Of a stretch of 64,000 bases of DNA, positions 5,546 through 29,827 are shown in pieces. Both the position numbers and the translations under genes were made by a program. Positions within the stretch are counted from its first letter, which is position 1; the number at the start of each line of letters is the position of its first letter. Source of the stretch: an uncultured Gammaproteobacteria bacterium (GTDB taxonomy: Bacteria > Patescibacteriota > Microgenomatia > Levybacterales > GWA1-39-11). A model generated the notes under the pieces. That model saw only the letters and a program-made list of their open reading frames with translations. It made no database searches and had not been told where the DNA came from. The stretch spans positions 25,828 through 89,827 of the forward strand of contig CAZKYX010000002.1 of assembly GCA_964557125.1 (NCBI GenBank). Direction: 5' to 3'.

Positions 5546-5733
5546 AATTTACTGTAGCAAACTTTTCAAAATAATGTCAACCCTGCTAAAGTAGCTCAAT
5601 TGGCACCTTTTTCCCATGTTAGAAAGTAGAGTACAAATTTATAGATTGATACATTAATTAACAATTTGATAGCAGTGAAAATAATATATTTTCACGTACA
5701 CTTTTATTATCCAATTTACCCTATTTTGAGGGC

Positions 5734-5763
5734 TTGACAAGCACAAAAAATAGTATCTATACT
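5734..5763 (+). promoter_or_regulatory. Sigma70-like promoter TTGACA-18-TATACT
   Basis: TTGACA at 5734-5739 and TATACT at 5758-5763, upstream of the 5805 ORF. Confidence 0.4.
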
Positions 5764-5804
5764 GATATCAGTATATCCCTTTTCAGGGACGGCAGGCATT
5801 GTGT

Positions 5805-6332
5805 ATGACAAAGAGAAAAAGTGTTAAAAGAGTTAAGGCACAGTCTTCCGAAGAAGGATATTTGCAGGCTGATTTTAAAAAGATTATGGGGAGAAACGAT
5901 AAGATATTGATTGGCCTTGTGAGCGGAGTTATCCTAATACTATTGATAGTTACGGGAGTGCTACTTTTTGGCAGAGGAAAACAAATTGACCGTGACAATG
6001 CAAATCTTCCCCCAGAGCAGCGCCCTATTCCAACAAAGGCTGTGCTTACTCCTTACCCTTCCATTCCTCCCACAACGGACTTTACAGTCGTTATTAATGA
6101 AAAAAGAATCTATCCTGCAGATATTGCTATTACTCATGGCTATTCAGTCATCCTTCTTAATATTGGTCAAAAGGACTTGGATATCGTTGGAATAGGCGCA
6201 AAAGACGCAATGCTAAATGTAGGAGTTATTAAGAATGGAGAGGAAAAACAAATTAAATTTGATGTAGCTGGTGTATATAAATTCAAGAATCAAGCACAAC
6301 CAAATCAGATAGGAACGATAACGGTGAGATGA
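5805..6332 (+). CDS. Membrane-anchored protein with a cupredoxin-like C-terminal domain and no obvious Cu ligands
   Basis: Single TM (ILIGLVSGVILILLIVTGVLLF). The beta-rich tail ending GVYKFKNQAQPNQIGTITVR resembles the cupredoxin_1 pattern. Confidence 0.5.
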   Translation: MTKRKSVKRVKAQSSEEGYLQADFKKIMGRNDKILIGLVSGVILILLIVTGVLLFGRGKQIDRDNANLPPEQRPIPTKAVLTPYPSIPPTTDFTVVINEKRIYPADIAITHGYSVILLNIGQKDLDIVGIGAKDAMLNVGVIKNGEEKQIKFDVAGVYKFKNQAQPNQIGTITVR

Positions 6333-6335
6333 GAT

Positions 6336-7439: not shown

Positions 7440-7441
7440 AT

Positions 7442-10400
7442 ATGAACACAAAAGACTTAAGAATGATGAGAACAATAGTTGTTAATAAGAAAATTTTTAT
7501 AGCTTTCTTTATTTCTTTAGTCACTTTATTTTTATTTGTTTCTAGAGGCAACGCTTTTAATACTAATATCGTTAACACTGATCTTGATCCTTTTTCCGCT
7601 AACCCAATGATGGCAGTTACAATTGGAAACAATAGTTTTGCCAAAATAGTTTCACCAAGATCTTCAGCAAACGGCTATGGAATTCAGTATCAGGAATGTA
7701 GTGATGATGCATGCTCATCGCGCTCAACAACTACGCTTTCCGTTGGAAGAGTAGCATCAGTCGACATTGCAAACTCTAGTGGCGATGGCTTCTCAAGAAT
7801 TCTGTTTGAAGATTACGTAAATAACGATTTGATATTTGTGCAGTGTCAAAACAGCCAATGTATTAGTAATATTCAGACAAATATTTTAAATGGAACCGCA
7901 GGTCTTGGTAGTGAAGGACAGGTAGAAGTGGCAAGTGATGGGTTTGCAAGACTTCTTTATAGAAATCAGAGCGGAAATCTGATATTTAGACAATGTACAA
8001 ACGCTGCATGTTCTACAGGTACATCTACAACTGTTGATGCAGGAACAACAGCAAGTTCTGGAAGATTTAAGATTGGAAGTGATGGGTTTGCAAGGATTGC
8101 ATTTATACCTGCAAGAGGGACAATTCGATTCTTTAAATGTACTAATGCAACTTGTAGCACAAAAACGACTACAAATCTTTCCATTACAGATGCGAATATT
8201 TCCAGAATTGATATAACCAGTGGAAATTTGCCAATGATTTTGTATAGGGATACAACAACTACTCCTACATCAAATGATGTAAGGCTTGTTCAGTGCACAA
8301 ATGATACGTGTGGAACCACAACAGACAATCTTATTGGTTCTCTAACCGATGGTACGTATCATGATGAACAAGAACTATTCATAGGAAATGATGGGTTTGC
8401 AAGAATATTCTTTAACACCAATAATGGTGGTGGTACAGCAAACTACTATGGAAGATTTATCCAATGCGGAAATGCTGCGTGTAGCTCTATAACAGCGGAT
8501 AATATCATTACTGGACTCAATAATGGATATGAATTGAACATGGTAAAGGGAAATGATGGGTATCCGCGCTTAGTTTATAGAAATGCGCCAAGTCCACAGC
8601 AAGTAATATTCGGTCAGTGTGTCAACGATACCTGTGTAACACCGGTTCCGACCGCTTCAGGTCAAACAGCAGTCTACGGAGGTACATACACAAGAACAAG
8701 CACTGATAATTCACCTTGGACAGTTAACTTTACAGCTGCAAATACCAATTATTATCAGGTAAGAACGGGTAGCACAACAGCTACTGGTACACAAGTTATT
8801 GTTGGTGCTGCTGCAAACGGGGCAAATTCAAAATCAATTAATTGGAATGCAACAGGTCTTGTCAATGGTTCCAATAGTCTTTACCTATTTGTGTCCGGTA
8901 ATAGTGGTTCTTCTTGGTCAAGTAATTATGCATTTACAATGCTTCGGGATGATACTGCACCAACCGCTGCAACCTCTATAAGCACAACACCTGGTACTGT
9001 TAGCGGAAATTATACGGTTACTTTTACTCCAAATGATGCAGCAAGCACCGGAAGTAATGAAATGAGTTATTACATAAGAACGGCTACTGGCGGCGGCGGT
9101 ACCCTGCTAACGAGTAGCGTTAAAACTTCAACATCTGGCAGTCCAAAAACAACGGCCTCAATTACAACTGACACTTTAGTACAGGGATCAAATACAAGAT
9201 ATGTCAGAACATGCGACGGAGCAAATAGGTGTACGGATACCTCATTTACAGTCACAGCGGGAATTCCCCCTACAAGTGTAACAGCTGTTGCTTCCGATCC
9301 ACCACCTGTTCTCAAATCGTTCAAAAACACCCTAAAGGGTAGTGCAAATCCAAATGGTTCTACTGCCCGAGGACATTTTAGATTATATACTTCAGTTCCA
9401 AATTGTACCCTCGACACAAATGGAACAAGAGTACCATCATCAGCAGGAAATGATGCAGTGCTTGGAGCTGGAAGTTCTCCTGTAGCATTTAGTGTAGGAA
9501 CAACTGTACCTCTTGTAAGACAGACTCAATATTGGTACTGCGCATACGCAGATAACGATGCAGCAGGACAAGGGAATCCTAGTACCGCAGCAGCAGCTGG
9601 ATACCAGACATTTACCACCCCAGATGGACCTGCTGGGGGATGTGACCCTGCCACAACTGGTGACCTTACCATTACCGATGCTTGTACATTCCCAGCAACT
9701 GACTTTGATGGGGTTGATGCAGGTGGAAATACTAATACAAATACTGCTCGTATCACTCTTGGTGCGGGTGGTAATGTGACTATCCTTGCAGGTCAAAAGG
9801 TTGCAAGAGGTAGCATATCTTTCAGCGGAGGACTACTAACGCTTCAAAATGGTAATGGGGGAATTATAAGAGGTGGAGTATACCTATTAGATGCTGACGG
9901 GGATGGGTATATAGATAATAATACGAGTCGTTATGTAGGTATAGCTCCTCCAGCGGGATATGTAAGACGCAATTATCTTGCCTCAACAACTTATTCGGGT
10001 TCTAATTATGACTATGCAAGTAAAATGTATGCTGTAAGTACATTTGACTGTAATACAGCAAGTGCGATAGAAGGTGTAAATGTGGCAAATCTTGCTGTAG
10101 ATGCTGACCAAGATGGGTATTATACCGGTGCTACAGGTACGTCTTGTGTGGGGGGAACATCAACTGTAAATGGCAGGACATATTATAGAGTAGCAGACGG
10201 GTCGTATTCAAAGATAATAGGTAGTCCTACAGGGGGTGCCAATGCAATTGCTGGAAGTGACTGTTATGACAATACAGGAGAGCCTTGTAAGCCAACTATT
10301 AATTCTGTAGGTTCTGCAACCCAGACAAGTCTTCTTGTTACATTTACAGCAGGTGCTGGTCCTGCAGCTACTGGTTCTGCGCTATTATGGTGTGACAGAA

Positions 10401-15075: not shown

Positions 15076-18000
15076 TCAGTTCACGATTAAATAATTGAAT
15101 TGTATATCCTTATTGATTACGGGGCCTGAGACACCCACAGTAAATGAGCCTGATTCAAACTCTGAGTCTGGCACTTGGCGGAGAAGGTAGAGTACCTTAT
15201 TTTGAGTATCTCCAAATGGGGTAATGTAAATGAGTGAATCCTCCGTTACATTCGGATTATAAATAGTAAGCTCTGGCTTATTCTTCTTGAGTGTTGCAAA
15301 TCCGGCAGAACCGGTAGCTGTTGCTTCAAGGTCTGAGGTTGCATGTGCTTGTCCGACGATATTAAAGTTAAGTTTTGCAAACGTTCCGCTTCCTGAGGCT
15401 GAAAGGGAGCCACGAACGTCTAGTAGGTTGTCTGATGAGATTGCCGCGCTACCGCTCGCAATGACAGAATTGGGGCTTCTTGCAATGACAAGAGCATTAT
15501 CTGCAAGAGGAGAAATGAGGTTTGTGGCTATAGAGTTTGCGGTAAGAATACCATTGAATACCCCATTTTGAGCTGCAATATTTCCTAATACATTTAGGTT
15601 ACCTGCAATGTCCATATTCCCATTGGTATCTATTTTTACGAGTCCCGCTAGGAAGTTGACTCCGCCTTGACGAAGAGGCTGGATTTCAAGGTCAGCTCCG
15701 AGGGTATTGATGGCATTGTCTCCGATAACAAAGCTATCCCCAATTGAGATTTGTTCCATGGCAGTAAGTGAGGTAAAGGTAGCCGGTCCAAGAGCTACAA
15801 TACCTTGCTCAAAAATACCGTAATCGGCCGTTAGATTGCCAACATGCAATGAATCTACATTTCCACTCGCTAAATTGCCAGAAAGGCTAGCCTGCTGCTG
15901 ATTTTGGAGTTGATTGGCGATACGGGTATCAAGCCCGTCAATGTTATTTGCATAAAGCGTTCCTGAGATGGTTGCATCATTTGTAGTAAGACTTCCTGTT
16001 GCAAGACTACCGGAAATACTTGCTGATTCAAAAAGAGCAACCTCAGAAGAGAGGGTGCCACTGAAGCTAGCATCCCCATTATCATTAATTTGTGCAACGA
16101 CCTTACCAGTAGTAGTATTTTTTAGTTTGATATTGTTTGATTCTATATTTAGCGCAATCGTCCCATTATTTCCAGTTGGTGAGATGATATTTGTTCTTAT
16201 TTGCTCAGAGTCTGCAACGGGTGAGGTAAAGTTGCCCGAAGCTAGAAGCTGTGTAACAGTTTGGTTAATATAGTTTTTAAGACTGATCCCAGCAATAGAA
16301 ATGTTTTCAGTTGATATGTTAAGAGATGAAGCCGTTGCATTTCCTAGGTTACTCATTGATGAGTTAAGACTTGAGATAGTACCTGACGCAAAGTTAAAAG
16401 AGTTACCTGTCAACGTGCTAATCGAAGCCGTTGAGGCTTGGAAGGTGTCTGTAATAAGCTCACGAGTATTTACAAGTCCTGACTTAATTTGTGCTACAAA
16501 GACTTTACCGTAGGCCTCCATTTGGTTAACGTTATTATTATTTACATCCTTTAAGACCCACTGACCTGATTCCCTATTAATAGTCAGAGTATTGTAGTAA
16601 GGATCTGCTCCAATATTGTTGTCATTTGCGCTACTTCCATTAACGGTTGGTGGTGGTGCGATATGACCCTTTATAACTCCAGTGTATGTTTTCCACTTAT
16701 CATGGTCAAAGCGGGGAGCCGTAAGTCTGTAAGAAATCTCTACTGGTCTATCTGCAAAGAGGGTAATAGTGCGATTTGCACCGTCTTTTTTATACCATGT
16801 TTTTGCTTGTGAATTGGGAGATAAAAGTACTGATACATTTGAAATATCTGGGTCAATAATACGATTAAATACCCAGTGACCCGACTGGTATTCAAAATGG
16901 TTAAAGTCCAGTTTGTAGGCGTATCCCCCAACCGAATTATCATACCCAAGTACAACTTTACCAGTATATTCTTCCTTTACTCCAACCATTGAAGGCATGT
17001 AAGTAGCGTATCCTTGACCATCAATAGTGTAGGGAGGGTCAACGGTTCCTGCATTAAGTTTTCCGGTTGCTGCAGGTCCAACATCAACCGTTCCATCGTT
17101 AAAGACTCTAAACACATTTTGTCCTGAGCGGCTTGCCGCTATAAGGTCACCTGAGCCTGATGCTTGGTCAACGACGAGGGCGGCGTAGCTGGTTCTACCA
17201 GAGAAGCTTGCAACCGGCCCTGCGTCATTACTAAAGACATTAAGCTTTCCTCCGAATATTGAACCTGTTGGAGATTGCAGCGTGCCTATGTTAACTTTGC
17301 CATTTGAAGTGAGGAAGAGACTTCCTAGATTGTTTGCAGGTTTGAACCAAATATCTCCAGTTGTGGTCCCTCCAAGCACAAGGGTGTTATTTCTTACGGT
17401 TTGGAGTGTTCCATCTCCTCCAATTGAGATACCGTTTCCAGAGCCACCTGAAGCTAGGGTAGCAGAGACCGAGGCAAATGGGGAGGCTGAACCGTTGATA
17501 TTTAGTACTGAAAATTTTGCAGAGCTAGTTGCCTGTGCTCCGATTAATATATCCAATGTATTATTTATGGGAGAGAGAGCGCCAGTATTTGTAGTAATTC
17601 TCCAGTTAGAAGAGCCGCCACCGCCTCCTGCACATGCAACTGTACCTGTAACTATCCCATTTACAACGTCAGATATACAAGTATTACCTCCAGTTACTGC
17701 TGCTCCAAATGTTCCATTCATTCGAAGTCCATTGGTTGAGGAAAGCTGTAAATTCAAAACACCGGAGCCATTTCTCGGTACGATATTTATGTCCCCAGTT
17801 GAACTTCCTCCAAGTACTAGTGTTTGGTTGCGGGTCGATTGTAGGCCGGCAGCTGCATCAACTGCAAAACCTGCAGCAGATGAAGCCGTTCCATCATTTT
17901 TAACTACAAATCTTGTAACGCCTGCTGAGGAGGCAGCAATAATATCATTATTAAGTCCAACTCTATTGATAATAAATCCAGCATTTGAGCCAATTCCGCC

Positions 18001-21000
18001 GGTTACAGAAAGTGCTGCTGGAGTGTTGGTTGATGCTCCAACATATACACCTGTATCAAAATCAGATGACAAAATCAGGTCGCCTGAACCATTGGGCGTA
18101 ATAGTTAGAGGTAGATTTGTGCCCGTTGTAAGGACTGCTGCAGCATTTGAGAATGTTGTTGTTGCTCCTGCAACAGTCAAGTCACCGCCTGCTGTTAGTA
18201 GTCCTGTACCTGTTGTAATTGGTCTATTGGTAGTGGTATTGATTGAAAGGGTTGATGCGTGTGTTAAATTGAGAATTGGACTGGCACCGGTAAGACTAAT
18301 TGTGGTTGAAGCAAGTGAGGTTGTTGAACCATTTACGGTAAGATTTCCACCTAGGGTTGTAAGTCCTGTACCTGTTGTAATTGGTCTATTGGTAGTGGTA
18401 TTGATTGAAAGGGTTGATGCGTGTGTAAGGTCAATTGTTGGACTGTTTCCTGTCAGATTAATAACTGTTGAAGCAAGAGTTGTCGTCGAGCCATTTACTG
18501 AAAGGTTGCCGCCGGTAGTCAAAAGGCCTGTACCCGTCGTTATTGGCCTATTAGTAATCGTGTTAAAGTTAAGTGTACCTGCAACAGCTGTATCAATTAT
18601 TTGGCTTGCACCGGTAAATTGGATAACCTGGCTTGCAAGCTGAGTTACACCCGTAGTGCTCCCTCCAATTGTTAGGGTATTATTTCTGACAGATTGTATG
18701 CTCCCATTTCCTGACAGGTAAATTCCCTTATTTATATCGGTACCTGAAGTTGCAGAGACTGATGCTACAGGTGTAGCTGTACCATTTATATTGAGAACTG
18801 CGAATTTTGCAGAGCTTGAAGATGTGCTTCCAACAAGCAAATCTAAGGTATCGTTAATTGGTGATAATGCTCCGGATGAAAGCCTCCAATTTGAACCTGC
18901 TACACCACCTCCGCATGCACCCCAAGAAGCAGTCGCACCACCGATTAGACATTGTCCTGTGCCCGTTGATGCTGAAAGGGTAATTGGACCGCTTGCAAGA
19001 GTAAGACCGGTAAGACCTGATGCAACTCCTGCAGAGGAAAGATTGATGTTGCCTGCAACATTAAATGCATCATCCGTTTTGAGTGTGTCGCTTGCGGACC
19101 TGTAAAGCGTGACACCATTTGCATCAGTGCCGAACTGAATACCTGCAGCAGTCGTATTTATCTCATCCCAAGTCCCATCGCAGTCAAAACAAATTCCGTA
19201 GTTATTGTCTGCACCTTGTGGGACATCAAGGTATATCGAATATTGGGAAGTTGTCCCCGTTGTATTTGCAAATCCTTCCCACTGGACATTAAGACCATAA
19301 GAATTGACGACGGGTGAGCCTCCGAGTATGAAAGGTGCATCTGGGAGAGCATATAGAGCAGACATATTTACGGTCGTGCTTGTAGCTGCGGTTGTCCAGA
19401 AAGATGTTTCACCAACAATACTTTTTTCTACAATCGTGCCTCCAGAGCCATCACTACTAGCAGAAGCAAACCCATAAATAGCTGTAAGATTTCTGGATCC
19501 ACTTAAGTCTTCAGCTCCGACCGCTGATGAGTAAATCCCATATAGTCTTTCAGTTCCTGAAGATGATGTGGTTGAGACAGCATTTTTAATTCCATAACCA
19601 TTTCTATTAGTACTGCTGCCTGTAAGACTAAGTCCATTTTTGATACCAAAAAACGTGCCCTCATAGGATCCGCTGGTGTTATTGGATAAGTCAATGCCTG
19701 AAAATTCACCGTAGTCGTCTGTTGGTGTATGAGTAAGGTTAAGGTCAAGCAATTGGCCATATGTATCATTAGTAGTAATAGCAGTAGTGATATCTACTGC
19801 TTCTCCTGTAGTAAGAGAATTTGCTGCCAGTGATAATACCGTACCGGTTGTTGATGTGCTTGGGATACTGACAGTTCCTATGCCATCTTTGGGAAGAAGT
19901 ATAATATCTCCTGTTGTTGTGCCCCCCAATGTTAGTGCATTAAAGTCAGTCGATTGGACCGCTCTTCCTACACCTTCAAGTGTGAGATTTCCTGAAATTG
20001 TTGCAAAACCTCCAGCGCTCAAATTGTCATCTGTTCTTAGTGTGTCATTGGCTGCTCTATATAAATTAACCCCATTTGCATCAGTGCCGAATTGTATTCC
20101 TGAACCAACTGTATTTTGGTCCCAAGACCCATCACAGTCGAAGCATAGTCCATAATTATTATCTGCACCCGTTTGGGGTTCTAGGTAAATACCAAAAGCT
20201 GTTGAATTCCCAGTTGTTGAAGTATTAGGTTCAGAGATCATTAATCCGTAAAGTCCAATTGTTCCACCAGTTGTAAGCGAACCCTCGACAAATGCTTGGA
20301 GACCTATCACGTCAATTGTTGCTCCAGTATTATCGCTATCAGTACTATATGCAGAGTGAAAATAACCACCCGTAAGGTATATATTTGCATTTGTGTCACC
20401 TCCTCCATTTGCTAATACAGCAGAATATATTCCCGTTGCACTTCTTTCACCTGTTGATATGCTATTTGTAATATCAAGAGTTGAAGATATGCCGTTAAGG
20501 TTATCACCCAAGTTAGAAGAGTTTTGTATGTAATTTTGTATACCAATTATATCTTTGTTGCTTGCATTGGAGGTTACATTCAGCCGGTTATTTATTCCCA
20601 AAACATCACTATTGGCAATTGTTCCGCTATCATTAGTAGTTAGGTTAAAGCTGCTGAAAAGATCATTTGTTGTTGTTGGGGAGTGGGTAATGTTAATATC
20701 CATCGCGCTTGTATAACCTCCTGTCGTTGGTGAGAATGTACCAGATAAATCAAGAATCTTTCCTGTTTTGAAATTTGCTCCCTGGATAGATAGAGCTGCT
20801 CCAGAGCTGGCATAATAATCAATAAATGTAGAACCTGAAATATAAAGATTATTGTCTAGTGTCGCATCTCCTGAGACAGACAATACATTAGTGGCAAGAC
20901 TTGGTGCATTGACACCTGACGTTTCAATAACTGATAGAGTATCGTCTGTACTTGTAATATATGCAAAATTCTTATTGATAAATACTTGATGAACTTCATT

Positions 21001-24000
21001 CATATTTATTGCACCTACACCATTTTTTATAACAGCAGCTTCAGTTGGCGATACTGGATCTGATATATCTATAAGAGTCAATGAATCGTCTTGGGTACTA
21101 GCTACATATGCATACTTTCCGGATACATAGACTTCATCGGGTGAATTTAGCTCTGTTGCTCCAATACCGTCAGTGATGGTTCCAATTTCCATTGGCGAAA
21201 CTGGATTTGATATATCTATGATAGAAAGTGAGTTTTCGCCAGTCACATACGCATAGTCATCTTCTACATATACAGAAATAGCACCATCCAGTTTAGTAGC
21301 TCCGACACCGTCTTTAATTGTACTAAGTATATTTGGAGAGGCTGGATTGGTTACATCTATTATACTTAAAGAATCATCTATTAAACTTGTTACGTATATA
21401 TATCCGTTGGCAAAGTATAATCCATATGCTGCGTCTAATTCGGATGAAGTCAAAGTTCCAACCTCAGTTGGTGATGATGGGTTGGTCACATCAAATATTG
21501 ATAAAGCATCTTCGTTATCACTTGTTACATACGCATAACCGTTGTTAACAAATACTTTTCTGGCTCCATAAAGTTTTGTTGCTCCAATACCATCTTTTAT
21601 GGTACCTACTTCCGTTGGTGACGTCGGATCGGAGACATCAAATATAGACAGAGCAGCATCTTCATAACTCACAACATATGCATACTTTCCGACAACGAAT
21701 ACACCTGTTGGTTGATCAAGTTCTGTGGCTCCGGCACCATCTGTTATTGTTCCAATTTCAGTAGGGGATGTAGGATCTGATATATCTATAATTGATAGAG
21801 AATCTTCGCCAGTCACATATGCATAGCTTCGAGATATATAAACATCTTGTATTCCAGATAGTTTTGTTGCTCCCGCTCCTTCGGTTATGGTACCAACTTG
21901 AGATAGGTGAGGTGTTATTAATAAACCGCCACCAGCTATTGTAAGCTTTTTTGTAGGATTGATTGTGCCAATTCCGATATTTCCTCCTGATCCATTTTGA
22001 GGCATGACAATGAGATTGCCACTGATAGACGCAATGGCTGGACCTGTACCGTTCATATTTAGCACTGCAAATTTGGCGCTGGTAGTTGACTGTGCGCCAA
22101 GCAGAAAGTCTTGTGTTATATTCCCAGGTACAATTGCGCCTAAATTAGTTGTAAATGGTGAGTCTGTCCCCCCAGCAGAGCATGATCCCCAAGTGGGAGT
22201 TGTCCCTCCCAAAAGACATTGCGTACCTGTCCCGGCCGCCGCTTGATATACCTGTCCTGAGGCATTAGCGTAGATAATTCCACCGCTTTGCCCAGTAAAG
22301 GAGGATACATTTAATATTGAGCTAACCGTAACGTTTTCAGCAGTAAGAGTGCCGGCATTATCAAGCGTGACAGATCCAAGTATTGAGCCATTGGTAGTTC
22401 TGCTGAGCGTTGTCGAGGTATTGCCACTTGAAAGGGTGAAATAATCAGTTGCATCAGCGGTATTTGTGACTCTTAATGTGCCATTAACATCAAGCGTTGA
22501 GAGTGGAGAGCTGGTATTAATTCCAACATAACCTCCCGCATTGCGAGGGAGAAGTGCTATGTTACCAGTGGTGCTTCCTCCAAGACTAAGTGTGTTGTTT
22601 CGGGTCGTTTGAAGAGAGCCATCCCCTCCAAGAACTAATGCTTGTCCACCAGCATTTTGTGCTGAAACTGATGCAGTGGGTACTGTAGAACCGTTAATGT
22701 TGAGCACTGCAAATTTGGCACTTGTTGTTGCCTGAGAACCGAGAAGAAAATCTACCGTGGAATTAACTGGGACGATTGTGCCGGAAAGTACTTGGAAAGG
22801 TGAATTTGGTCCACTGGCACCGCAGCCGGTACAACCGGATGTAACGTTAAGCGTTGCAAAGGTTCCATTCCCACTCGAATCGATTATGGTAGAGCCTCCA
22901 ACGAGAAGACCACCTGAAACCAAATTGAAAGAATCACCACTTGAAAGATCAATCCTGTTGGCAGCTCCTCTAAAAAGCTGTGCGTCACCACCTAGTACTA
23001 TCCCTCCCGTTGAGCCTGTAATGGGGAGCTGAAATTGTCCCGCTTGAGTAAGTCTTGAGAGCTCAGTTGATACATTTTGAAATATAAAGTCAGCGTTGCT
23101 GGCACCCATTGTTTGAAAGGTAAGAGAGGTAATACCGCTGGTTTTTTGATTTTGAACAAGATAGGGGTCAACAATATCAGCAGTTATTTTTCCGCCACCA
23201 TTAGCTCCAACTATCAAATTGCCATTATTATCAATTCGAAGAACCGTTCTTCCGGCTTGGCTTGCTACAATAATGTCACCAATGCCTGCATTATCAACAA
23301 GAAGAGAGGCAAATGAAGAGCGTGCAGAAATTGAGGCAGTTCCCGTCGTGCCCGTCAGTCCTCTTACATCAAGTGCCAACTTAGTAAAGGGGGATGAGGT
23401 ATTAATACCAATTCTTCCGTCATTGGCAATAAAGAGGCGAGAGATTAGTCCGGCATCCCCTTGACCTGTGGAAGCGGTTTGGAAATTAAGGCTTCCCCCA
23501 TTGAGAACATTAAATAGAGCAGAAGGGGCAGAGCCTGTTGGCACTTGAAGAGAAAGATTGCCGGAAAATGAGGCTGTAGGGGTTCCTCCTGTGTTAATTC
23601 CAGTAAAGGCAATTTTGGCTGTTGAGGTAGCAACACCTCCTATTAGCAAATCAAGTGTGTCATTGATAGGGGATAGTGCACCATTGGTAAGTCTGAAAAA
23701 GCTACTTCCACCGCTGCCGCTTCCCATTTGGGTCCAAGATGTACCGTTGCAGTAGTAGTAGGTATTTGCGGGCCCGTCATAATACATTCTTCCGGCAGTT
23801 GCAACAGCACAGGCTCCGGCATCTGATTGGATGGATGGACCAAGTGATAAAGTTGATGAAATAGAGGCTGTTCCAGCTACATCAAGGGTAAAGTTGGCTG
23901 TTCTTTTACCGATAGCTACATTTCCATTGGTATCAATTACAAATTTTGTTGTTCCGCCTTGGCTAGCAGTAAAGATATCTCCCCCCACACTTTGATTGTT

Positions 24001-25887
24001 AACGATAAATGCGGCTGTTGCTGATTCTGAGGCCAATACAGCAAATTTGTCATCAATTTCTACAGCTCCTTGGCTGATGTTGCCAGTCGTACCAAGATTT
24101 ATCAGCGGCTTTTCAAGATCAATTTTTCCCAGCCCATCAGGTATTAGGATAATATTTCCACCAGATGATGAATTAGTTGCCAAGACAAGCGGTTGTCCGG
24201 ACAGCTTAAATTGACCTCCTGATGCGGTAAAAGTAGGAGCAGCACTTCCGCCGATTGTAAGATTTCCTGATGCATCTAAGGCCAAAACAACATTGGTGGT
24301 TGCAGCGGTTCCAGTAATAGGCGGAAGGCCTTGTAAGAATTCTGAGTTGGTAGCATAGGCAACTGTTGCTATTCTTTGCCGAGGGGTTAGCTCAGGTGTT
24401 GAGGCTATAGTAACACCAAGCCATGTATTTATGTTGTCAGAGAATACCGTTGTTGGGATAACCGTACCATTTCCAAGAATTACTGAGAATATACCGTCTT
24501 GATCTGGTGTAACACTGGTGAGTACCTCCTGCCAGAGGAGTGCGGCTCCAGATGCGGAAGCATCATCGTAAATAGCAAAACGAATATTTGTCGAAGTTGT
24601 TATAGGATTGTCTAAGTTATCAGTAAGCCTTCCTTGAAATGACAAAACACGAGGTGGAGCAACAGGTGCAGCGAAAGATGGCAGTATGTCTTTGTTACCA
24701 ACAAGGTTTTGGTACAGTGCAATCCCCACCCCTGAGGCAAAGACTATCAATATTGCAAAATGAAGGTAGTGGGAAAATGTATAGGTATGATATTTTTTGT
24801 ACCAATCTGGTCTGGTATGACGCATATGATGCCATATTCTTTTGTGAAAAGGGGAGCCTTGAAGCTGAATTGCTTGAGGTGCATAAAACTCTTTTTTAAT
24901 ATTGCGTATTCCAAGTAGATCGTGAAGTTTTAACTTTCTTTGAAACTCTAAGACTTTTTTTGCGTTAAGGGTTTTTTGTGCAACGTTAAGAGGTAGCGTG
25001 TTAAGCGCCTTCTTGCCAGTTATCATAAGCGCTATTGCCTGCGCTGTTTTTTCTTCAAAAAGAAGATAGGGGAGAACAAGGGTTTTTTGAAGGAGTCTAA
25101 GGGGGGCAAATTTTGAATAAGAGATACTGACTGGTTCATTTACCGCTGCTGTTTTTGTTTTGATGTCAGATAGCGCTATGGTTGGCTCAACAGCTTCAAG
25201 TTTTGCTTCAACTGAGGACAGTATTATTTCTTGTGGAGAAATGAGATTTTGCTTGGTAGCAAATTCCAGATATCGTCTGAGAGAGGAGAGCTTGCGATTG
25301 ATGGTTCTTGGAGCAGCTCCTTGGATATCAAGAAGTCTTTTTTTGTAACCATCCAATACCTCTTGGTTAATATGATAAAAATTTGCCTGCTTTGTTAATG
25401 GATTTTCAAGAGTTGGTAGGACTGCGGTTTCAAACCATCTGGCAAAATTTTGTATGTCATTGATATAGTTCTTTATAGTTAGATGCGATGAGCCAAAGAC
25501 ATAGAGGTAGTCTTTAAAATCTTGGATATGCCAGAGATCGGGTTGTAGGTTGTAGGTTGTAGGTTGTAGCAAGAAGGGATTTGCTTCAATTACCTTTTCT
25601 TTCACAAGCATTGTGCTCAGTTTGCGAATGGAGGATATGTGTCGGTTGATTGAACGTAGCGATATGCCTTCTTGCACAACTCCGTATTTGATAGCCCCAC
25701 CTTGTGTCTGCTTGTAGAGCTGAATAGTATCCTCTGAAATGTCGGTTGGGCTAATTGTTCTTCCAGTTGTCCTTTCAAACCACTGAATAAAATGGCGAAT
25801 ATCAGAAAGATAATTTTTTAAGGTGATTGGTGATACCTTTTTCTTTTCTGAAAGTAGTTGTGATTTAAAGAATTCTAGTAGTTCCAT
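15076..25887 (-). CDS. Giant surface protein (3603 aa): two N-terminal integrase SAM-like domains, a TM, then repeat-rich ectodomain with LVIVD-type repeats
   Basis: N-terminal ITLKNYLSDIRHFIQWF and LTIKNYINDIQNFARWF...RTINRKLSSLRRYL. TM YLHFAILIVFASGVGIALY. Eight repeats of LSIIDISDPTSPTEIGT type. Recurrent SAKFAVLNINGS modules. Confidence 0.9.
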   Translation of the reverse strand: MELLEFFKSQLLSEKKKVSPITLKNYLSDIRHFIQWFERTTGRTISPTDISEDTIQLYKQTQGGAIKYGVVQEGISLRSINRHISSIRKLSTMLVKEKVIEANPFLLQPTTYNLQPDLWHIQDFKDYLYVFGSSHLTIKNYINDIQNFARWFETAVLPTLENPLTKQANFYHINQEVLDGYKKRLLDIQGAAPRTINRKLSSLRRYLEFATKQNLISPQEIILSSVEAKLEAVEPTIALSDIKTKTAAVNEPVSISYSKFAPLRLLQKTLVLPYLLFEEKTAQAIALMITGKKALNTLPLNVAQKTLNAKKVLEFQRKLKLHDLLGIRNIKKEFYAPQAIQLQGSPFHKRIWHHMRHTRPDWYKKYHTYTFSHYLHFAILIVFASGVGIALYQNLVGNKDILPSFAAPVAPPRVLSFQGRLTDNLDNPITTSTNIRFAIYDDASASGAALLWQEVLTSVTPDQDGIFSVILGNGTVIPTTVFSDNINTWLGVTIASTPELTPRQRIATVAYATNSEFLQGLPPITGTAATTNVVLALDASGNLTIGGSAAPTFTASGGQFKLSGQPLVLATNSSSGGNIILIPDGLGKIDLEKPLINLGTTGNISQGAVEIDDKFAVLASESATAAFIVNNQSVGGDIFTASQGGTTKFVIDTNGNVAIGKRTANFTLDVAGTASISSTLSLGPSIQSDAGACAVATAGRMYYDGPANTYYYCNGTSWTQMGSGSGGSSFFRLTNGALSPINDTLDLLIGGVATSTAKIAFTGINTGGTPTASFSGNLSLQVPTGSAPSALFNVLNGGSLNFQTASTGQGDAGLISRLFIANDGRIGINTSSPFTKLALDVRGLTGTTGTASISARSSFASLLVDNAGIGDIIVASQAGRTVLRIDNNGNLIVGANGGGKITADIVDPYLVQNQKTSGITSLTFQTMGASNADFIFQNVSTELSRLTQAGQFQLPITGSTGGIVLGGDAQLFRGAANRIDLSSGDSFNLVSGGLLVGGSTIIDSSGNGTFATLNVTSGCTGCGASGPNSPFQVLSGTIVPVNSTVDFLLGSQATTSAKFAVLNINGSTVPTASVSAQNAGGQALVLGGDGSLQTTRNNTLSLGGSTTGNIALLPRNAGGYVGINTSSPLSTLDVNGTLRVTNTADATDYFTLSSGNTSTTLSRTTNGSILGSVTLDNAGTLTAENVTVSSILNVSSFTGQSGGIIYANASGQVYQAAAGTGTQCLLGGTTPTWGSCSAGGTDSPFTTNLGAIVPGNITQDFLLGAQSTTSAKFAVLNMNGTGPAIASISGNLIVMPQNGSGGNIGIGTINPTKKLTIAGGGLLITPHLSQVGTITEGAGATKLSGIQDVYISRSYAYVTGEDSLSIIDISDPTSPTEIGTITDGAGATELDQPTGVFVVGKYAYVVSYEDAALSIFDVSDPTSPTEVGTIKDGIGATKLYGARKVFVNNGYAYVTSDNEDALSIFDVTNPSSPTEVGTLTSSELDAAYGLYFANGYIYVTSLIDDSLSIIDVTNPASPNILSTIKDGVGATKLDGAISVYVEDDYAYVTGENSLSIIDISNPVSPMEIGTITDGIGATELNSPDEVYVSGKYAYVASTQDDSLTLIDISDPVSPTEAAVIKNGVGAINMNEVHQVFINKNFAYITSTDDTLSVIETSGVNAPSLATNVLSVSGDATLDNNLYISGSTFIDYYASSGAALSIQGANFKTGKILDLSGTFSPTTGGYTSAMDINITHSPTTTNDLFSSFNLTTNDSGTIANSDVLGINNRLNVTSNASNKDIIGIQNYIQNSSNLGDNLNGISSTLDITNSISTGERSATGIYSAVLANGGGDTNANIYLTGGYFHSAYSTDSDNTGATIDVIGLQAFVEGSLTTGGTIGLYGLMISEPNTSTTGNSTAFGIYLEPQTGADNNYGLCFDCDGSWDQNTVGSGIQFGTDANGVNLYRAANDTLRTDDNLSAGGFATISGNLTLEGVGRAVQSTDFNALTLGGTTTGDIILLPKDGIGTVSIPSTSTTGTVLSLAANSLTTGEAVDITTAITTNDTYGQLLDLNLTHTPTDDYGEFSGIDLSNNTSGSYEGTFFGIKNGLSLTGSSTNRNGYGIKNAVSTTSSSGTERLYGIYSSAVGAEDLSGSRNLTAIYGFASASSDGSGGTIVEKSIVGETSFWTTAATSTTVNMSALYALPDAPFILGGSPVVNSYGLNVQWEGFANTTGTTSQYSIYLDVPQGADNNYGICFDCDGTWDEINTTAAGIQFGTDANGVTLYRSASDTLKTDDAFNVAGNINLSSAGVASGLTGLTLASGPITLSASTGTGQCLIGGATASWGACGGGVAGSNWRLSSGALSPINDTLDLLVGSTSSSSAKFAVLNINGTATPVASVSATSGTDINKGIYLSGNGSIQSVRNNTLTIGGSTTGVTQLASQVIQFTGASQIIDTAVAGTLNFNTITNRPITTGTGLLTTGGNLSVNGSTTTLASTVINLTGNSPTIDLTHASTLSINTTTNRPITTGTGLTTLGGNLTVNGSTTSLASTTISLTGASPILNLTHASTLSINTTTNRPITTGTGLLTAGGDLTVAGATTTFSNAAAVLTTGTNLPLTITPNGSGDLILSSDFDTGVYVGASTNTPAALSVTGGIGSNAGFIINRVGLNNDIIAASSAGVTRFVVKNDGTASSAAGFAVDAAAGLQSTRNQTLVLGGSSTGDINIVPRNGSGVLNLQLSSTNGLRMNGTFGAAVTGGNTCISDVVNGIVTGTVACAGGGGGSSNWRITTNTGALSPINNTLDILIGAQATSSAKFSVLNINGSASPFASVSATLASGGSGNGISIGGDGTLQTVRNNTLVLGGTTTGDIWFKPANNLGSLFLTSNGKVNIGTLQSPTGSIFGGKLNVFSNDAGPVASFSGRTSYAALVVDQASGSGDLIAASRSGQNVFRVFNDGTVDVGPAATGKLNAGTVDPPYTIDGQGYATYMPSMVGVKEEYTGKVVLGYDNSVGGYAYKLDFNHFEYQSGHWVFNRIIDPDISNVSVLLSPNSQAKTWYKKDGANRTITLFADRPVEISYRLTAPRFDHDKWKTYTGVIKGHIAPPPTVNGSSANDNNIGADPYYNTLTINRESGQWVLKDVNNNNVNQMEAYGKVFVAQIKSGLVNTRELITDTFQASTASISTLTGNSFNFASGTISSLNSSMSNLGNATASSLNISTENISIAGISLKNYINQTVTQLLASGNFTSPVADSEQIRTNIISPTGNNGTIALNIESNNIKLKNTTTGKVVAQINDNGDASFSGTLSSEVALFESASISGSLATGSLTTNDATISGTLYANNIDGLDTRIANQLQNQQQASLSGNLASGNVDSLHVGNLTADYGIFEQGIVALGPATFTSLTAMEQISIGDSFVIGDNAINTLGADLEIQPLRQGGVNFLAGLVKIDTNGNMDIAGNLNVLGNIAAQNGVFNGILTANSIATNLISPLADNALVIARSPNSVIASGSAAISSDNLLDVRGSLSASGSGTFAKLNFNIVGQAHATSDLEATATGSAGFATLKKNKPELTIYNPNVTEDSLIYITPFGDTQNKVLYLLRQVPDSEFESGSFTVGVSGPVINKDIQFNYLIVN
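25541..25568. repeat. (GGTTGTA)4 heptamer array inside the giant CDS
   Basis: Encodes LQPTTYNLQP in the linker between the two SAM-like domains. The same array is intergenic at 40914 and, as its complement, at 42281. Confidence 0.85.
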
Positions 25888-26645
25888 GGGCAGTTATAGT
25901 ATTAGTGTGAAAAGTGTTTTTGAGAGTTTTCATCTCCCGTGAAAAAGTTAACAAAAATGGGTGCGGTGGTATTCCCGAAAAAATAGTACTTAGCCTCAAA
26001 ATTATACTGATTATATCGATTATACATAGCCTCATTCCAGATTAAAGAATATTTATTATGATGTCAAGGGCCTAGAGTAGTTAGATGATACTCATTGATA
26101 TGCTTAGTACTATTCATGAAAAAATATAGGCCAAAATATGCTCAATTTTCCCAATGTAAAAATATATTTAGTGACTTTCCACGGCTTTCGGGAATAAATA
26201 TGTCAGATTACGGTAATTCGGGGATACTATATCAAACTATAAAATAGTATCTTTTTTGGGGCTGATATAGTTAGACCTAATCATACAATATCAAGCGTTA
26301 ATTAGGTGTAATTGCCATCAAATTCTGTAAATTGTTTTCACAGAGCAGGCTGAATGTCGATAAAAAAATAACTATTGGTTTTTGTGATGTCTTGTTATGA
26401 AAAGAAAACCGTCCATATTTAATAAATATCGGCCTTTATTTATCAGTAGCCATTTGTGAGTGATTTTAATTGGCATATATGCTTTGGACTGCTATAACAA
26501 TCTAATCGCGGATATTTACTGAGAGAGACTGAAAAAGTGTAGAACTATAGTAAATATATTTATCTTTTTAGGGGTTTTGTATATACGATACATACAAAAA
26601 TAACTTAGTTACTATGAGTTAACAAAATGTGGTAATTGATAGGAG

Positions 26646-27623
26646 TTAGATTTTTCTCTTAACTTTGAGATAGATGCTGATACCTACAAATATCAAGATG
26701 ATAAGCACAAAATAGAGATACGTTGGAAAGGCAAAAAATGAAGTTGAGGCTGTAGTTGTACTGTTTTCATCGAGTTGAATAGCAACGGTTGCTTTATAGT
26801 ACCCAAGCAGGAAATTCTCAGGCCAGAAGACGATTGGATTGGCTACTTTTACTTTTGCAACTTCTGAAAGATATTTTTCATTTGTACCTACCTGATTTGC
26901 ATCAACAAGATATCTTTCCGAATTGGCAAGTACATACTGTGGAAGAATTTTTATGTTCGCTATCTTTTTACCAAATAGATTTTTTATAGTTATTGAACCT
27001 GTTGGGACAATCAGATGTGGGCTATCATTTTGCAAAAGTAGGTTGAAAGGTACTGGTCCTGAAGAAAAGAAAGGTTTTGTTTTGAATTCTGAAATAATGC
27101 CGCTTGAGGATAGCTTGGGTCCAATTGAGACGAGAATATTTGTTCCAATGCCTGCAGGTATTTGACTTGCATTCGTATCGCTGAGCTCAATACCTTCAGA
27201 AAGAAATACAAGTGAAAAGTAATAATCGCCAGCAGGATCTCCTTTGTCCAAATTTATATTTATCGTAAGGTCTCGAGTTTCATTTGGGGCCAAGGTAAGC
27301 CTATTAATTTTTTTCCCGTTATCGAGTATTTGAATCTTTCTTTTAATAGCTTGAGGTAGACTATCTTCATTGTCAGGCAAATACTCAATAGTCCCATTCT
27401 TTTCATCAGTCATTTTGATGGGTAGCAGTTGTATTTTGAGCTCAGCAGGAAGATCCTCAAAGTTTTGGATAGCTACGGTTGTTTCAGGTGAGGATGGGGG
27501 GGTAGCTTGAATTTCAATAACTGACGGGAATATACCAAGAGAGAGTGCTTCAGCACTGATAGGTTTTGTAGACAATTTGGAAAGGAAGAGTAGTAGTATT
27601 AAGAAAATCACTAGTTTTTTCAT
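26646..27623 (-). CDS. DUF916/DUF3324-like cell-surface protein with C-terminal TM anchor
   Basis: Signal peptide, two beta-sandwich-like halves, C-terminal TM plus KVKRKI. Same architecture as 54582-55565. Confidence 0.6.
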   Translation of the reverse strand: MKKLVIFLILLLFLSKLSTKPISAEALSLGIFPSVIEIQATPPSSPETTVAIQNFEDLPAELKIQLLPIKMTDEKNGTIEYLPDNEDSLPQAIKRKIQILDNGKKINRLTLAPNETRDLTININLDKGDPAGDYYFSLVFLSEGIELSDTNASQIPAGIGTNILVSIGPKLSSSGIISEFKTKPFFSSGPVPFNLLLQNDSPHLIVPTGSITIKNLFGKKIANIKILPQYVLANSERYLVDANQVGTNEKYLSEVAKVKVANPIVFWPENFLLGYYKATVAIQLDENSTTTASTSFFAFPTYLYFVLIILIFVGISIYLKVKRKI

Positions 27624-28005: not shown

Positions 28006-28803
28006 CTATATCGAGGGTATAGCTATAAACATTATATTATTTTGGTATTGTCCAGCTGCTTGTGAGCTTGATACGTTGGCTTTGTACGTAATTTGTGTTT
28101 GTCTCCCACGCCCAACATTAGTGCTGGACATAACGGTTTGGGATAGCTCAGCAGATTCACTTGAGGCAAACTGCTTATAAAAGGTTGAGGTCGCAAAGGC
28201 AGCAGGGCAGTCAGTACCGACAATATCATCGCATCGGTAGCCAAAGCCATAGGTAAGTGCACTAGTCCAAGCTGAGGCTGTTGTATGCGTGCAGGTTCCT
28301 GAATCACAGGTTGTATCAGGGATATCAACTCCGGTTGAATTCATTCTAAGCGGATGATTTTCATTTGCTAGAATTTGATAGCCAGCAGCAGAGCCGTTAT
28401 TTACCGTAAGGGTATTTGTGCGTGTGACTGGAGTGCCTGGAGCGAGTACCCCAAAATCAATAAATAACGACGATATTGAGAAGGCAAAGGCTATTCTGGA
28501 GTTAACATACTGAAACCCAGCTCTGACCGTGTAATTGGCCCCAGTATAGAGGCCTGGGGCTATTTGTCCAACGGTAATGCCAAGGCCATATTGAGAATTG
28601 GCGGCTTTTCCTGCAGCGGTATTCAAGTTCCCAAAGTGAATAGTGTAGTTACTGTTAGACATGGTCTCGGCATCAATAGTCCGAGCCCAAAATATCAAAA
28701 AAAGGGCAATGTTAAGCATTAAGAAAGGCAAAGAATATCGAGGTTTGAATATCGAATATCGTATATTGTATATTGATTGTAGGATAGTGAATTTTGAGTT
28801 CAT
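28006..28803 (-). CDS. Secreted beta-rich protein, WxL-like C-terminus (true start possibly the ATG at 28719)
   Basis: Signal-like MLNIALFLIFWARTIDA. C-terminal AGQYQNNIMFIAIPSI. The first 28 codons are read from a heptamer word array. Confidence 0.55.
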   Translation of the reverse strand: MNSKFTILQSIYNIRYSIFKPRYSLPFLMLNIALFLIFWARTIDAETMSNSNYTIHFGNLNTAAGKAANSQYGLGITVGQIAPGLYTGANYTVRAGFQYVNSRIAFAFSISSLFIDFGVLAPGTPVTRTNTLTVNNGSAAGYQILANENHPLRMNSTGVDIPDTTCDSGTCTHTTASAWTSALTYGFGYRCDDIVGTDCPAAFATSTFYKQFASSESAELSQTVMSSTNVGRGRQTQITYKANVSSSQAAGQYQNNIMFIAIPSI

Positions 28804-29177
28804 ATGAAGGATTTGGTTTTTTTGATTATTCCTTGAAGAAGTTTGGACACAATGATTTGCTGCTGAATAATTTCTTCATAGTCCTTTGAGCTTATATAAG
28901 TTAAATCTCTACATATTAGAAGCTGATTCTGGATTTCATTAACTGACCCGAAGGCTAGATAATAAAAGTAAACCTTGTCCTTATATGTTTTTCTGCCGAA
29001 ACCCTCAGCTATATTATTCGTAATAGATGTAACTGCGCGTTTCATTTGATCCGTTAATGAGTATAATTCTTCTTTAGGTAAGCTTCTGGTTAGCCTATAA
29101 ATCATTAATACAAGCGTGTGTCCCTCCTGCCAGACATGTAGGTCAGTGAAGGAAGATATGCTTTTCTTTACTTCCAT
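28800..29177 (-). CDS. Four-helix-bundle protein (23S rRNA intervening-sequence / Avd-like family)
   Basis: FTDLHVWQEGHTLVLMIYRLT...QMKRAVTSITNNIAEGFGR is typical of this family. Confidence 0.8.
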   Translation of the reverse strand: MEVKKSISSFTDLHVWQEGHTLVLMIYRLTRSLPKEELYSLTDQMKRAVTSITNNIAEGFGRKTYKDKVYFYYLAFGSVNEIQNQLLICRDLTYISSKDYEEIIQQQIIVSKLLQGIIKKTKSFI

Positions 29178-29200: not shown

Positions 29201-29827
29201 TCACTTCTCTGCTTCATCATGCAGAGAAGAGGCTTCTTCGATGATTTCATCAATAGCTTCAATTTCTTCCTGTTCTCTCTGATTGCCATCTTCTCGCAGA
29301 GCTGTAGCTTCAGTGATAATATCATCTGTTTTAGCTTCAATTTTATCAGTCAACAAGCTTCTTCGCTCATACTCTCGGCCAAAAAAGTAGGCAATTGGGC
29401 CTATGAGGACAAGGGAGCCCAGCTTTATAAAGTTCTCAGTGGTTTTAGCTTCAAAAGCTTCCGGTATAAAGTAGAGTATAATCCCGAGAAGAAAAATGAG
29501 ACTTGAGGTAGGACGGGCGAGAAATGAGATGCCAAAGAGTACAAAGTAGAGAAAAAAGAAGAGCGGCGATGAAAGACCATTCGTTGAGCTCACAATCAGA
29601 AGAACAACGCTGACAAGCCCAAAAACCTCGGGCAGTGAGCCTGTGAAAAGTTGTTCCCGAGTTTTTGAGCGCTTGGTGAGCGTGATGTAGATAATAGAGA
29701 AAACGATAAGAATTGCTAGAATATAGCTTGAGTATTCAAGAAGCGGACTGTTGTTGATGATATATACCATCAAAACAGCTGAGAGGATAGTGATGGATTC
29801 GATGAGCATATATTTATCGTATACCAA
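29201..29827 (-). CDS. Membrane protein with acidic C-terminal tail (start TTG 29827 or ATG 29809)
   Basis: About 5 TM helices followed by an E/D-rich tail. Confidence 0.6.
   Translation of the reverse strand: MVYDKYMLIESITILSAVLMVYIINNSPLLEYSSYILAILIVFSIIYITLTKRSKTREQLFTGSLPEVFGLVSVVLLIVSSTNGLSSPLFFFLYFVLFGISFLARPTSSLIFLLGIILYFIPEAFEAKTTENFIKLGSLVLIGPIAYFFGREYERRSLLTDKIEAKTDDIITEATALREDGNQREQEEIEAIDEIIEEASSLHDEAEK

Follow-up and report, generated by a model that had tools for sequence, protein, structure and literature searches.

Why does a giant surface protein begin with two domains of the type found at the N-terminus of phage integrases? The question is raised by a gene in a stretch of 64,000 nucleotides (hereafter the window; ~41% G+C), which was taken from contig CAZKYX010000002.1 of assembly GCA_964557125.1 and belongs to a bacterium of the order Levybacterales, class Microgenomatia, in the candidate phyla radiation (CPR). 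The gene, an open reading frame with an ATG start at 15076..25887 of the window, encodes a giant fibre protein of 3603 residues; its domains and its leader, described below, lie with it on the minus strand. An earlier note, made from the letters of the window alone, described a pair of integrase-type domains followed by a membrane helix and a very large ectodomain, and regarded the arrangement as an oddity that hinted at DNA or nucleoid tethering, or signalling. Here, we find that the architecture and the family to which it belongs are almost certainly real. The reading that we tentatively favour, with somewhat less than even confidence, is that the N-terminal module is a cytoplasmic, likely DNA-binding extension of the export signal of the fibre and that it is probably severed from the fibre.

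The N-terminal module

The module consists of two SAM-like (core-binding) domains, D1 (residues 1–108; 25564..25887) and D2 (residues 118–222; 25222..25536), and of a basic linker (residues 223–372; 24772..25221) that has a net charge of about +15, an amphipathic helix, and the conserved motifs YS.FPP.RL.QK and R.TRP.WYK.YH. The two domains had been proposed from their appearance, together with a profile search as a check, and both the profile and the fold bear them out. When scanned alone, residues 1–115 match PF02899 (Phage_int_SAM_1) with 38.0 bits and residues 116–236 with 37.0 bits, so that each half of the N-terminus lies above the curated cut-off of 22.3 bits; residues 237–527, scanned as a piece, have no Pfam match. 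A Pfam scan of the whole protein yields LVIVD (137.8 bits), three 'Phage integrase SAM-like' families, and nothing else notable. In an AlphaFold2 model built on 47 sequences the module forms two four-helix bundles with a predicted local distance difference test (pLDDT) score of 95–98. Foldseek ranks highest, among PDB entries, the core-binding domains of a Haloarcula integrase (3nrw), VchIntIA (2a3v), XerA (5hxy), Brujita Int (5vfz), Tn1549 Int (6en2) and lambda Int (1z19), with probabilities of 0.96–1.0. The weakness of their E-values stems from the size of the query, 420 residues, of which the domain accounts for 100. Only one sequence in the PDB is matched by the family profile: chain 14 of 9i5v, a protein of 401 residues that bears the name 'Ribosome-associated translation inhibitor RaiA' in its deposition and is SAM-like over the first ~100 residues (E 9e-9). 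This may be a further setting of the fold outside recombinases, or the gene model may be a fusion.

That no catalytic domain follows the pair, as the earlier note had stated, holds for the entire protein. The catalytic domain PF00589, with its R-K-H-R-H/W-Y active site, was not found by the Pfam scan anywhere in the 3603 residues, and the NCBIfam models of XerC and XerD match only over their first ~100 positions, scoring 61 and 52 bits where their cut-offs are 335 and 330. Across the entire assembly (1.45 Mb), just three ordinary open frames of 272–321 residues carry PF00589, all on other contigs. The same three frames give the only PF02899 matches outside the giant gene, and the module itself has a single copy in its genome.

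In comparison with tyrosine recombinases (XerC/XerD, XerA, IntI, lambda Int, Tn1549 Int; PF02899/PF13102/PF13495), the module has the same fold and the motifs T..NY..D...F..W in helix B and S..R.LSSLR.F in helix D. In contrast to them, the giant protein carries core-binding domains in tandem and lacks the catalytic domain, and thus has no recombination chemistry; a membrane helix and a giant ectodomain follow instead, and its clade lies far from the three recombinases of the genome. The giant protein is therefore not a recombinase, and the labels 'site-specific integrase' or 'XerD' in public records are wrong.

Distribution and evolution of the family

A search of 5.8 billion proteins with residues 1–420 returned 89 proteins of 2000–6000 residues, several of them labelled 'site-specific integrase' or 'XerD'. 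Most span nearly all 420 residues, mostly at 25–50% identity, and they come from Patescibacteria/Levybacteria-type metagenome bins. An exhaustive HMMER search over 1.84 billion representatives found 173 proteins at E<1e-30; in the best 150 of these the match always lies at the protein's own N-terminus (residues 1 to ~420). Their lengths cluster at ~1300–1650 and 2000–6000 residues, and the shorter ones are largely partial or contig-truncated records.

Related genomes, which the earlier note had proposed to survey for the same N-terminus, carry the module widely. Its profile (positions 1–630) is found in 157 of the 201 genomes of the order, including 126 of 156 high-quality genomes, and in 77 of 89 genera. 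There is nearly always one copy per genome, in an open frame of 1300–7100 residues. The arrangement is thus no peculiarity of one genome: it is a near-universal single-copy gene of the order. Full-length matches in an even sample of 301 genomes of the phylum are confined to this order. Weaker matches from the phylum and sister-order samples include diverged two-domain versions (genomes G003, G059 and G245) and one-domain versions (G005 and G183), and one genome has a version with no such domain (G174).

One might suppose that a decayed integrase came to be joined, accidentally or through mis-assembly, to a gene for a surface protein, as the public labels would invite one to do. Conservation refutes this and makes it scarcely credible: the module is encoded in a single open frame in 157 genomes with profile coverage of positions 1–630, residues are invariant in both domains, and D1 and D2 are each kept throughout the order. 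In a tree of the domains, the D2 domains of the order form one clade (100/98 support), most D1 domains group apart from D2, and the core-binding domains of the true recombinases of the genome sit on very long branches. Judged by this tree, D1 and D2 are under long-term constraint as two separate lineages.

In several lineages of the sister order the gene is split. A frame of 161–189 residues encodes D1 plus helices A–B of D2, and the giant frame starts at helices C–D of D2 (for example, 918-1433 and 1439-8671 of locus L058 in genome G032; also loci L057, L059 and L060). In G032 the giant frame starts 5 nt after the stop codon of the small gene. The small proteins have no hydrophobic helix and no signal peptide. 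From its sequence, the divided D2 appears to be a naturally split domain, which two chains would have to reconstitute.

Membrane topology

On which side of the membrane does the module lie? The single transmembrane helix placed earlier at about residues 375–395 is indeed the sole candidate. Residues 374–392 are the only segment of the 3603 with a Kyte–Doolittle mean above 1.5, and also the only one with a crude insertion energy below 3 kcal/mol, as computed with central-position values of the Hessa scale and without positional weighting. The helix (residues ~373–395; 24703..24771) could be a signal-anchor or the h-region of a signal peptide. Its N-terminal flank has a net charge of +5 plus five histidines and its C-terminal flank a charge of about zero; residues 1–372 carry +20 and the ectodomain carries −107. 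Nearly all of the 89 long homologues have the same pattern of charge and helix, and in the one-domain relatives, too, the only helix is preceded by a basic flank. Based on the single helix, the basic N-terminal side and acidic ectodomain, the crude energies, and the like arrangement in the one-domain relatives, the module very probably lies in the cytoplasm, as the earlier note had assumed.

The opposite topology would require a second membrane helix. A weakly hydrophobic, charge-interrupted segment about 100 residues upstream of the helix (amphipathic residues ~260–290) is flagged by the Kyte–Doolittle scale in about a quarter of the homologues, and if it spanned the membrane, the basic loop of residues 290–372 would be inside, which fits the positive-inside rule, and the N-terminus would be extracellular. 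Against this, the crude insertion energy of the segment has a median of 8.7 kcal/mol, compared with 0.7 for the true helix, and exceeds 5 kcal/mol in 101 of 114 members (10.0 in the giant protein). There is also no signal peptide to export a folded, basic N-terminal tail of 260 residues, the one-domain relatives lack the segment, and the small proteins of the split lineages have neither helix nor signal peptide. An extracellular N-terminus is accordingly very improbable.

A putative signal-peptidase site behind the helix

Past the helix lies the sequence P403-S-F-A406/A407 (24667..24681), a putative type I signal-peptidase site recognized by motif conservation. Of 139 family members, 109 have a motif P-[TAV]-[LF]-A/A, which lies a median of 13 residues past the helix and fits the rules for type I signal peptidase: the −3/−1 rule is observed, position −4 has a helix breaker, and +1 is a residue other than proline. 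The uncut form is spanned at the A406–A407 junction by the peptide ..ILPSFAAPVAPPR, and the cut form would begin with APVAPPR.

The relatives without SAM-like domains bear on this site. Fibres of another class (genomes G222 and G094) have a classical signal peptide, MDNLPSSKKRILLLVCAFLLLFTIQVQA/ATPENLNYQGKLKD, with a predicted cleavage point (VQA/A; MDNLPSSKKRILLLVCAFLLLFTIQVQA/ATPE..) that falls at the place equivalent to A406/A407. Their signal peptide ends a few residues before the homologous first ectodomain, which reads ..NLNYQGKLKD.. in these fibres and ..RVLSFQGRLTD.. in the giant protein. In light of the conserved site and of these signal peptides, the apparent fusion may be an enlarged, severable signal sequence. 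The simplest reading of the sequences is that the fibre was originally secreted by means of a cleavable signal peptide, whose n-region would, in Microgenomatia, have gained one and then two core-binding domains. Whether signal peptidase cuts the giant protein at the putative site is, in our estimate, evenly balanced.

If no cut occurs, the helix could be a permanent type II anchor, in line with the idea of the earlier note; fibre and module would then remain one polypeptide, and the protein could be a ToxR/CadC-like regulator or a nucleoid tether that reports contact or load of the fibre. The single helix with its N-in charge pattern, an h-region of the length typical of anchors, juxtamembrane motifs conserved on both sides, and a unique repeat in the leader of the gene as a possible operator (see the following section) all suit such an anchor. 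Against it speak the conserved signal-peptidase-like site past the helix, the SAM-less homologues, in which a classical cleavable signal peptide takes the place of the helix, the split lineages in which part of the module is a separate polypeptide, and the lack of a recognizable sensor-type domain. We consider a permanent anchor rather unlikely. The known regulators ToxR, TcpP and CadC resemble the giant protein in having a cytoplasmic DNA-binding-type N-terminal domain, a single helix (predicted to be N-in in the giant protein) and an extracytoplasmic C-terminal part. They differ in having a winged helix where it has a core-binding bundle and a small sensor where it has a 3200-residue fibre, and in the giant protein the link between the two parts may be cut by signal peptidase.

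A conserved repeat in the leader

If the module binds DNA, the leader of its own gene offers a candidate site. The 8 kb upstream of the gene were compared in the window and 20 other genomes of the order (21 loci). All 21 contain a conserved leader block within a long gap upstream of the giant gene, with the layout ACTCTAGG-N3-TTGACA, 17–18 nt, TAnnCT, 14–45 nt, ATAAnnnRTATAATnnGTATAAT, CTCGAGGCTAA. In the window the block occupies 25989..26078 and comprises ACTCTAGG-N3-TTGACA, a −10-like TAnnCT box, a triple 9-bp repeat TATAATcgaTATAATcagTATAAT at 26001-26024, and then TTTTGAGGCTAAG.

Of the 61 genomes of the order that were searched, 47 have the pattern of the repeat once and only once, and the reversed control has none of it; the pattern is present in 47 of the 53 genomes that have the gene and in none of the eight that lack it. 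Where a gene position is listed, nearly all repeats lie within ~0.5 kb upstream of the gene start, with exceptions at ~5 kb (genome G315) and ~1.4 kb (G319). In the genome of the window the triple repeat is unique. Upstream of the orthologous gene in the sister order it is complete in six loci and has two units in three, and in the split-gene lineages a two-unit or degenerate repeat precedes the small first gene in three of four loci.

The leader has no Rfam match. A structured leader RNA was considered and rejected, as RNAalifold gives no consensus pairs over 17 orthologous leaders. With neither an Rfam family nor a consensus RNA structure, the repeat looks like a DNA-level or linear-sequence signal. 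It sits just downstream of a canonical −35/−10 pair, the position at which operator or sigma-dependent pause elements would sit.

Several other features were seen in these leaders. One or two TTTTCAC(A/G) motifs recur between the repeat and the start codon; in the window they lie at 25938-25945 and 25906-25913, within the stretch 25888-25990. The ATG is preceded by ACTGCCC, which is not a Shine–Dalgarno sequence, and CTGCC precedes the start in about eight of the 21 orthologues. The SAM-less fibre genes of G222 and G094 (loci L080–L083) occur as two paralogues per genome, and three of these four copies have a near-identical, GTATA-rich upstream block of ~110 nt (..CTAGTATATATTCTCTTGCGTCTAGTATCTGTTTAGTGGTATTGTATACAGTATATAGTGTAC..), which by its sequence may be a relative of the triple-TATAAT element.

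What the module may do

The module keeps the polar and basic face typical of core-binding domains, and its most strongly conserved residues are in helices B and D. Invariant residues of D2 are F124, L128, T137, Y141, D144, F148, W151, Y181, R198 and S202, and basic columns conserved to at least 90% are K24, R82, R88, K89, K125, K139, K182, R184, R198, K199 and R204. In both domains the helix-B and helix-D residues (T/K/N/Y/D/F/W and S/R/S/L/R/K) are invariant or at least 90% conserved. The net charge is +3 for D1 and +2 for D2, which resembles the core-binding domains of the true recombinases of the genome. Since the polar and basic residues of helices B and D are kept, double-stranded DNA is the most likely ligand; that the module binds nucleic acid at all is, as judged from these residues, a claim to which we give equal weight for and against. 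That the repeat in its own leader is the target is doubtful, even as the best candidate at hand.

In the reading that we favour, the helix would be the Sec export signal of the fibre and the SAM-like module a cytoplasmic enlargement, of ~370 residues, of the n-region of that signal. The module would leave the ribosome first and stay in the cytoplasm. A cut by signal peptidase at A406/A407 would then leave, for each exported fibre, one membrane-tethered core-binding protein of ~406 residues. This protein would bind double-stranded DNA, with the triple repeat as the best candidate target, and binding to its own leader would couple the synthesis or export of the costly fibre to its transcription, by autorepression or counting. 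Binding could also keep the gene close to the membrane for as long as the lengthy co-translational export lasts. A more specific version is that the cut tandem core-binding protein represses its own gene via the repeat, which is placed at about +8 to +31 from the transcript start. The module would act either tethered to the membrane or in soluble form after intramembrane proteolysis, and the cell would thereby count exported fibres. A recombinase module for DNA recognition would here serve as an autoregulator carried by a signal peptide. We regard export-coupled self-counting of this kind as quite unlikely.

A number of considerations weigh against the favoured reading. Core-binding domains alone usually bind DNA weakly, and DNA-binding folds in bitopic membrane proteins can bind protein instead, for which RodZ is a precedent. 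Taken by itself, the positive-inside rule is also compatible with a topology of two helices. The h-region (19–22 residues) and the c-region (13 residues) are atypically long, which favours an uncleaved signal-anchor. As for the repeat, the triple TATAAT sequence may be part of a specialised strong promoter, or it could be a sigma-dependent pause site needed to transcribe a gene of 10–20 kb. Finally, the co-occurrence of the repeat with the SAM-like module decides little: the exact triple repeat is absent from five SAM-less loci, but these are few, inter-related and still GTATA-rich.

The ectodomain

The body of the protein is a giant extracellular fibre. The ectodomain, estimated in the earlier note at about 3200 residues, measures 3206 (residues 398–3603). 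It opens with a conserved first domain (PPRVLSFQGRLTD...TPRQRIATVAYATN..LQG; 24268..24666), which is common to fibres of other CPR classes with two, one or no SAM-like domains. Farther on, the LVIVD beta-propeller (PF08309, six Pfam stretches) described earlier is present, with a correction: by motif count it has seven blades at 20917..21825, not eight at about 20930–21920. The reported 54-residue tandem repeats correspond to a 162-bp repeat of 2.2 copies found by Tandem Repeats Finder (TRF) at 18200..18556, with two TTTNRPITTGTGL units, and the repeated modules noticed before amount to five of the [ST][ST]AK[FI]..-type ('SAKFAVLNIN'). An antisense open frame of 453 residues within the giant gene (17282-18643, plus strand) is most likely a by-product of a repetitive, stop-poor opposite strand.

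The protein ends in a conserved C-terminal region (residues 3200–3603; 15079..16290) that terminates in ..FN[WY]LIVN and has a mean column identity of 52% over its last ~145 residues. Of the 38 proteins with the conserved C-terminal 400 residues, 34 also carry the PF02899 module. Given this co-occurrence, the family is, by its sequences, one of fixed 'bookends' and a mosaic middle; depending on the member, the middle contains Kelch, LVIVD, Laminin_G_3, CBM_4_9 or Peptidase_S74 domains. PF13884 (Peptidase_S74) is present in many homologues; neither it nor a tail-fibre PHROG match was found in the giant protein, and its conserved C-terminus has no sequence match in the PDB. The possibility that this C-terminus is a pilin- or WxL-like attachment module of a tip adhesin found no support at the level of sequence, as HHalign against the neighbouring candidate pilins gave a probability of 0.1%.

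The upstream chaperone and candidate-pilin locus

In all 21 loci the giant gene stands behind a co-oriented string of genes. The typical string is c2 (~210 residues), c0 (~250 residues) and c1 (~335 residues), followed by a gap of 240–1600 bp and the giant gene; often there is a second pair of c0 (~480 residues) and c1, and an oppositely oriented anchored protein, c3. In the window c1, c0 and c2 all lie on the minus strand.

The c1 gene (26646..27623), present in 21/21 loci, encodes a membrane-anchored chaperone of the WxLIP/DUF916 type (PamC/D-like) with a signal peptide and a C-terminal helix. It matches the Pfam family WxLIP_PGBD (PF06030), and its AlphaFold2 model (pLDDT 89.6) has as top Foldseek matches E. 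faecium WxLIP (9i25_C/9i1y) and the chaperone–usher chaperones CsuC, Caf1M, CfaA and DraB, with E-values of 3e-11 to 1e-7. A sequence search of the PDB with the candidate pilin and the chaperone gave no match, and the chaperone was identified by fold alone. The c0 gene (28006..28803) encodes a secreted candidate pilin of 265 residues; c0–c1 pairs occur in all 21 loci, c0 often as a pair of ~250 and ~480 residues.

The first gene of the cluster, c2 (29201..29827), is present in 18 of the 21 loci and encodes a polytopic membrane protein with an acidic cytoplasmic tail. It has three to six hydrophobic segments, mostly four or five, and belongs to no Pfam family. Behind the last hydrophobic stretch the sequence begins with YFFGREY.RR, and the final 60 residues are strongly acidic in 17 of 18 cases (net charge −4 to −17). 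For the basic cytoplasmic part of the giant protein, c2 is a candidate partner.

Such a partner brings in a different explanation of the module, namely that core-binding folds, exapted like the HTH of RodZ, bind no DNA and act as an adaptor. They would dock the nascent giant protein, or its signal remnant, to the export machinery, to a cytoskeletal or polar landmark, or to the acidic tail of c2, and would target, pace or position the export of a substrate of 3000–7000 residues. The charge of +20 on the cytoplasmic part, the wide occurrence of c2 with its acidic tail, and the position of the module on the export signal are all consistent with this, and the sharing of D2 by two polypeptides in the split lineages implies a tight protein–protein assembly. 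Conservation in the module is nevertheless strongest at residues of helices B and D, among them the S..R.LSSLR motif of true recombinases, and DNA binding is the only role otherwise known for the fold. On balance we find an adaptor that binds only protein rather unlikely.

Between c2 and c0 of the window there is a gene for a 23S-rRNA-IVS protein (a four-helix bundle, PF05635) at 28800-29177. Judged by its N-terminal sequence, a similar small gene stands between the small SAM-like gene and the giant gene of genome G503 (L057 9841-10212). The occurrence of IVS-type genes at unrelated positions suggests a small mobile gene that is tolerated within the locus.

The gene order recalls two known pilus systems. 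Pam pili of CPR bacteria are made of pilins and PapD-like chaperones with a C-terminal helix; a 'tail fibre-like protein' is consistently located together with pam operons (Troman et al. 2026, PMC13278184). The WxL/Elr chaperone–pilin pilus of enterococci has a like arrangement (Sleutel et al. 2026, bioRxiv 10.64898/2026.10.17.759780). With both, the present locus shares an upstream membrane-anchored PapD/WxLIP-like chaperone and secreted candidate pilins in the same gene order. It differs in the integrase-type module: the words 'integrase' and 'SAM-like' do not occur in PMC13278184, and the outline and abstract of bioRxiv 10.64898/2026.10.17.759780 mention no integrase-type domain. A further difference is that the giant C-terminus has no profile similarity to the neighbouring candidate pilins.

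The heptamer array between D1 and D2

The earlier note had pointed to a (GGTTGTA)4 array as the linker between the two domains, and TRF agrees: on the coding strand it is a (TACAACC)4 array at 25541..25569 that encodes LQPTTYNLQP. Arrays of (TACAACC)n are also found in intergenic DNA at 40904-40931 and 42280-42307 of the window, and the assembly holds six, of 3–7 units, on contigs that include C17, C20, C26 and C50. The heptamer is a dispersed genomic repeat, one array of which forms the D1–D2 linker; no such array was seen at the D1–D2 junction of the homologues compared. One array follows the stop codon of ComEC and adjoins a GTCAT-capped palindromic element, and contig C50 begins within a seven-unit array.

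Phase variation at the array was considered, as a product of 116 residues that ends at the array exists in another assembly. It was set aside: Logan contig L044, from a near-identical strain, has the same four copies, diverges, and ends 17–20 nt later. With four intact copies and the sequence ending so soon, this looks like an assembly break and not a frameshift.

Relation to known proteins and significance

The architecture is not described in the literature searched, which included the giant-gene preprint, the Vampirococcus paper and PMC13278184 (all three by word search). New here are the P-x-[LF]-A/A site, its homology to the signal peptides of SAM-less fibres and the order-wide counts, together with the uniqueness of the repeat, the chaperone fold of c1, the split-domain lineages and the dispersed heptamer array.

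Among known fibres, the mosaic adhesive trimer (MAT) fibres of Bdellovibrio (Caulton et al. 2024, PMC10769870) and the Peptidase_S74 tail fibres of phages are likewise long surface fibres that combine conserved ends with a mosaic, exchangeable middle or tip. A difference is that the giant protein has no PF13884 match. In neither MAT nor phage fibres do we know of a cytoplasmic DNA-binding-type module.

Signal sequences with later functions are known: enterococcal pheromones derive from lipoprotein signal peptides, and the arenavirus stable signal peptide and the foamy-virus Env leader are further cases. By analogy with these, a cut-off export signal would persist as a product. The present case differs in that the n-region has ~370 residues with two folded domains and that cleavage is predicted from the sequence. 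To our knowledge, there is no bacterial precedent for a folded n-region of ~370 residues.

CPR bacteria, which account for a large part of bacterial diversity, live attached to other cells, and the giant proteins of their surface, like the pili discovered lately, are believed to mediate this contact. In the order described here, a near-universal single-copy gene for a giant fibre carries an integrase-derived module at what is probably the cytoplasmic side of its predicted export signal. Many public records call these proteins 'integrase' or 'XerD', so the mislabelling inflates the counts of mobile-element genes in CPR genomes. If the module does bind the leader element, a surface structure would be connected with its gene in a new manner, and the core-binding fold of tyrosine recombinases would have a new use as well.

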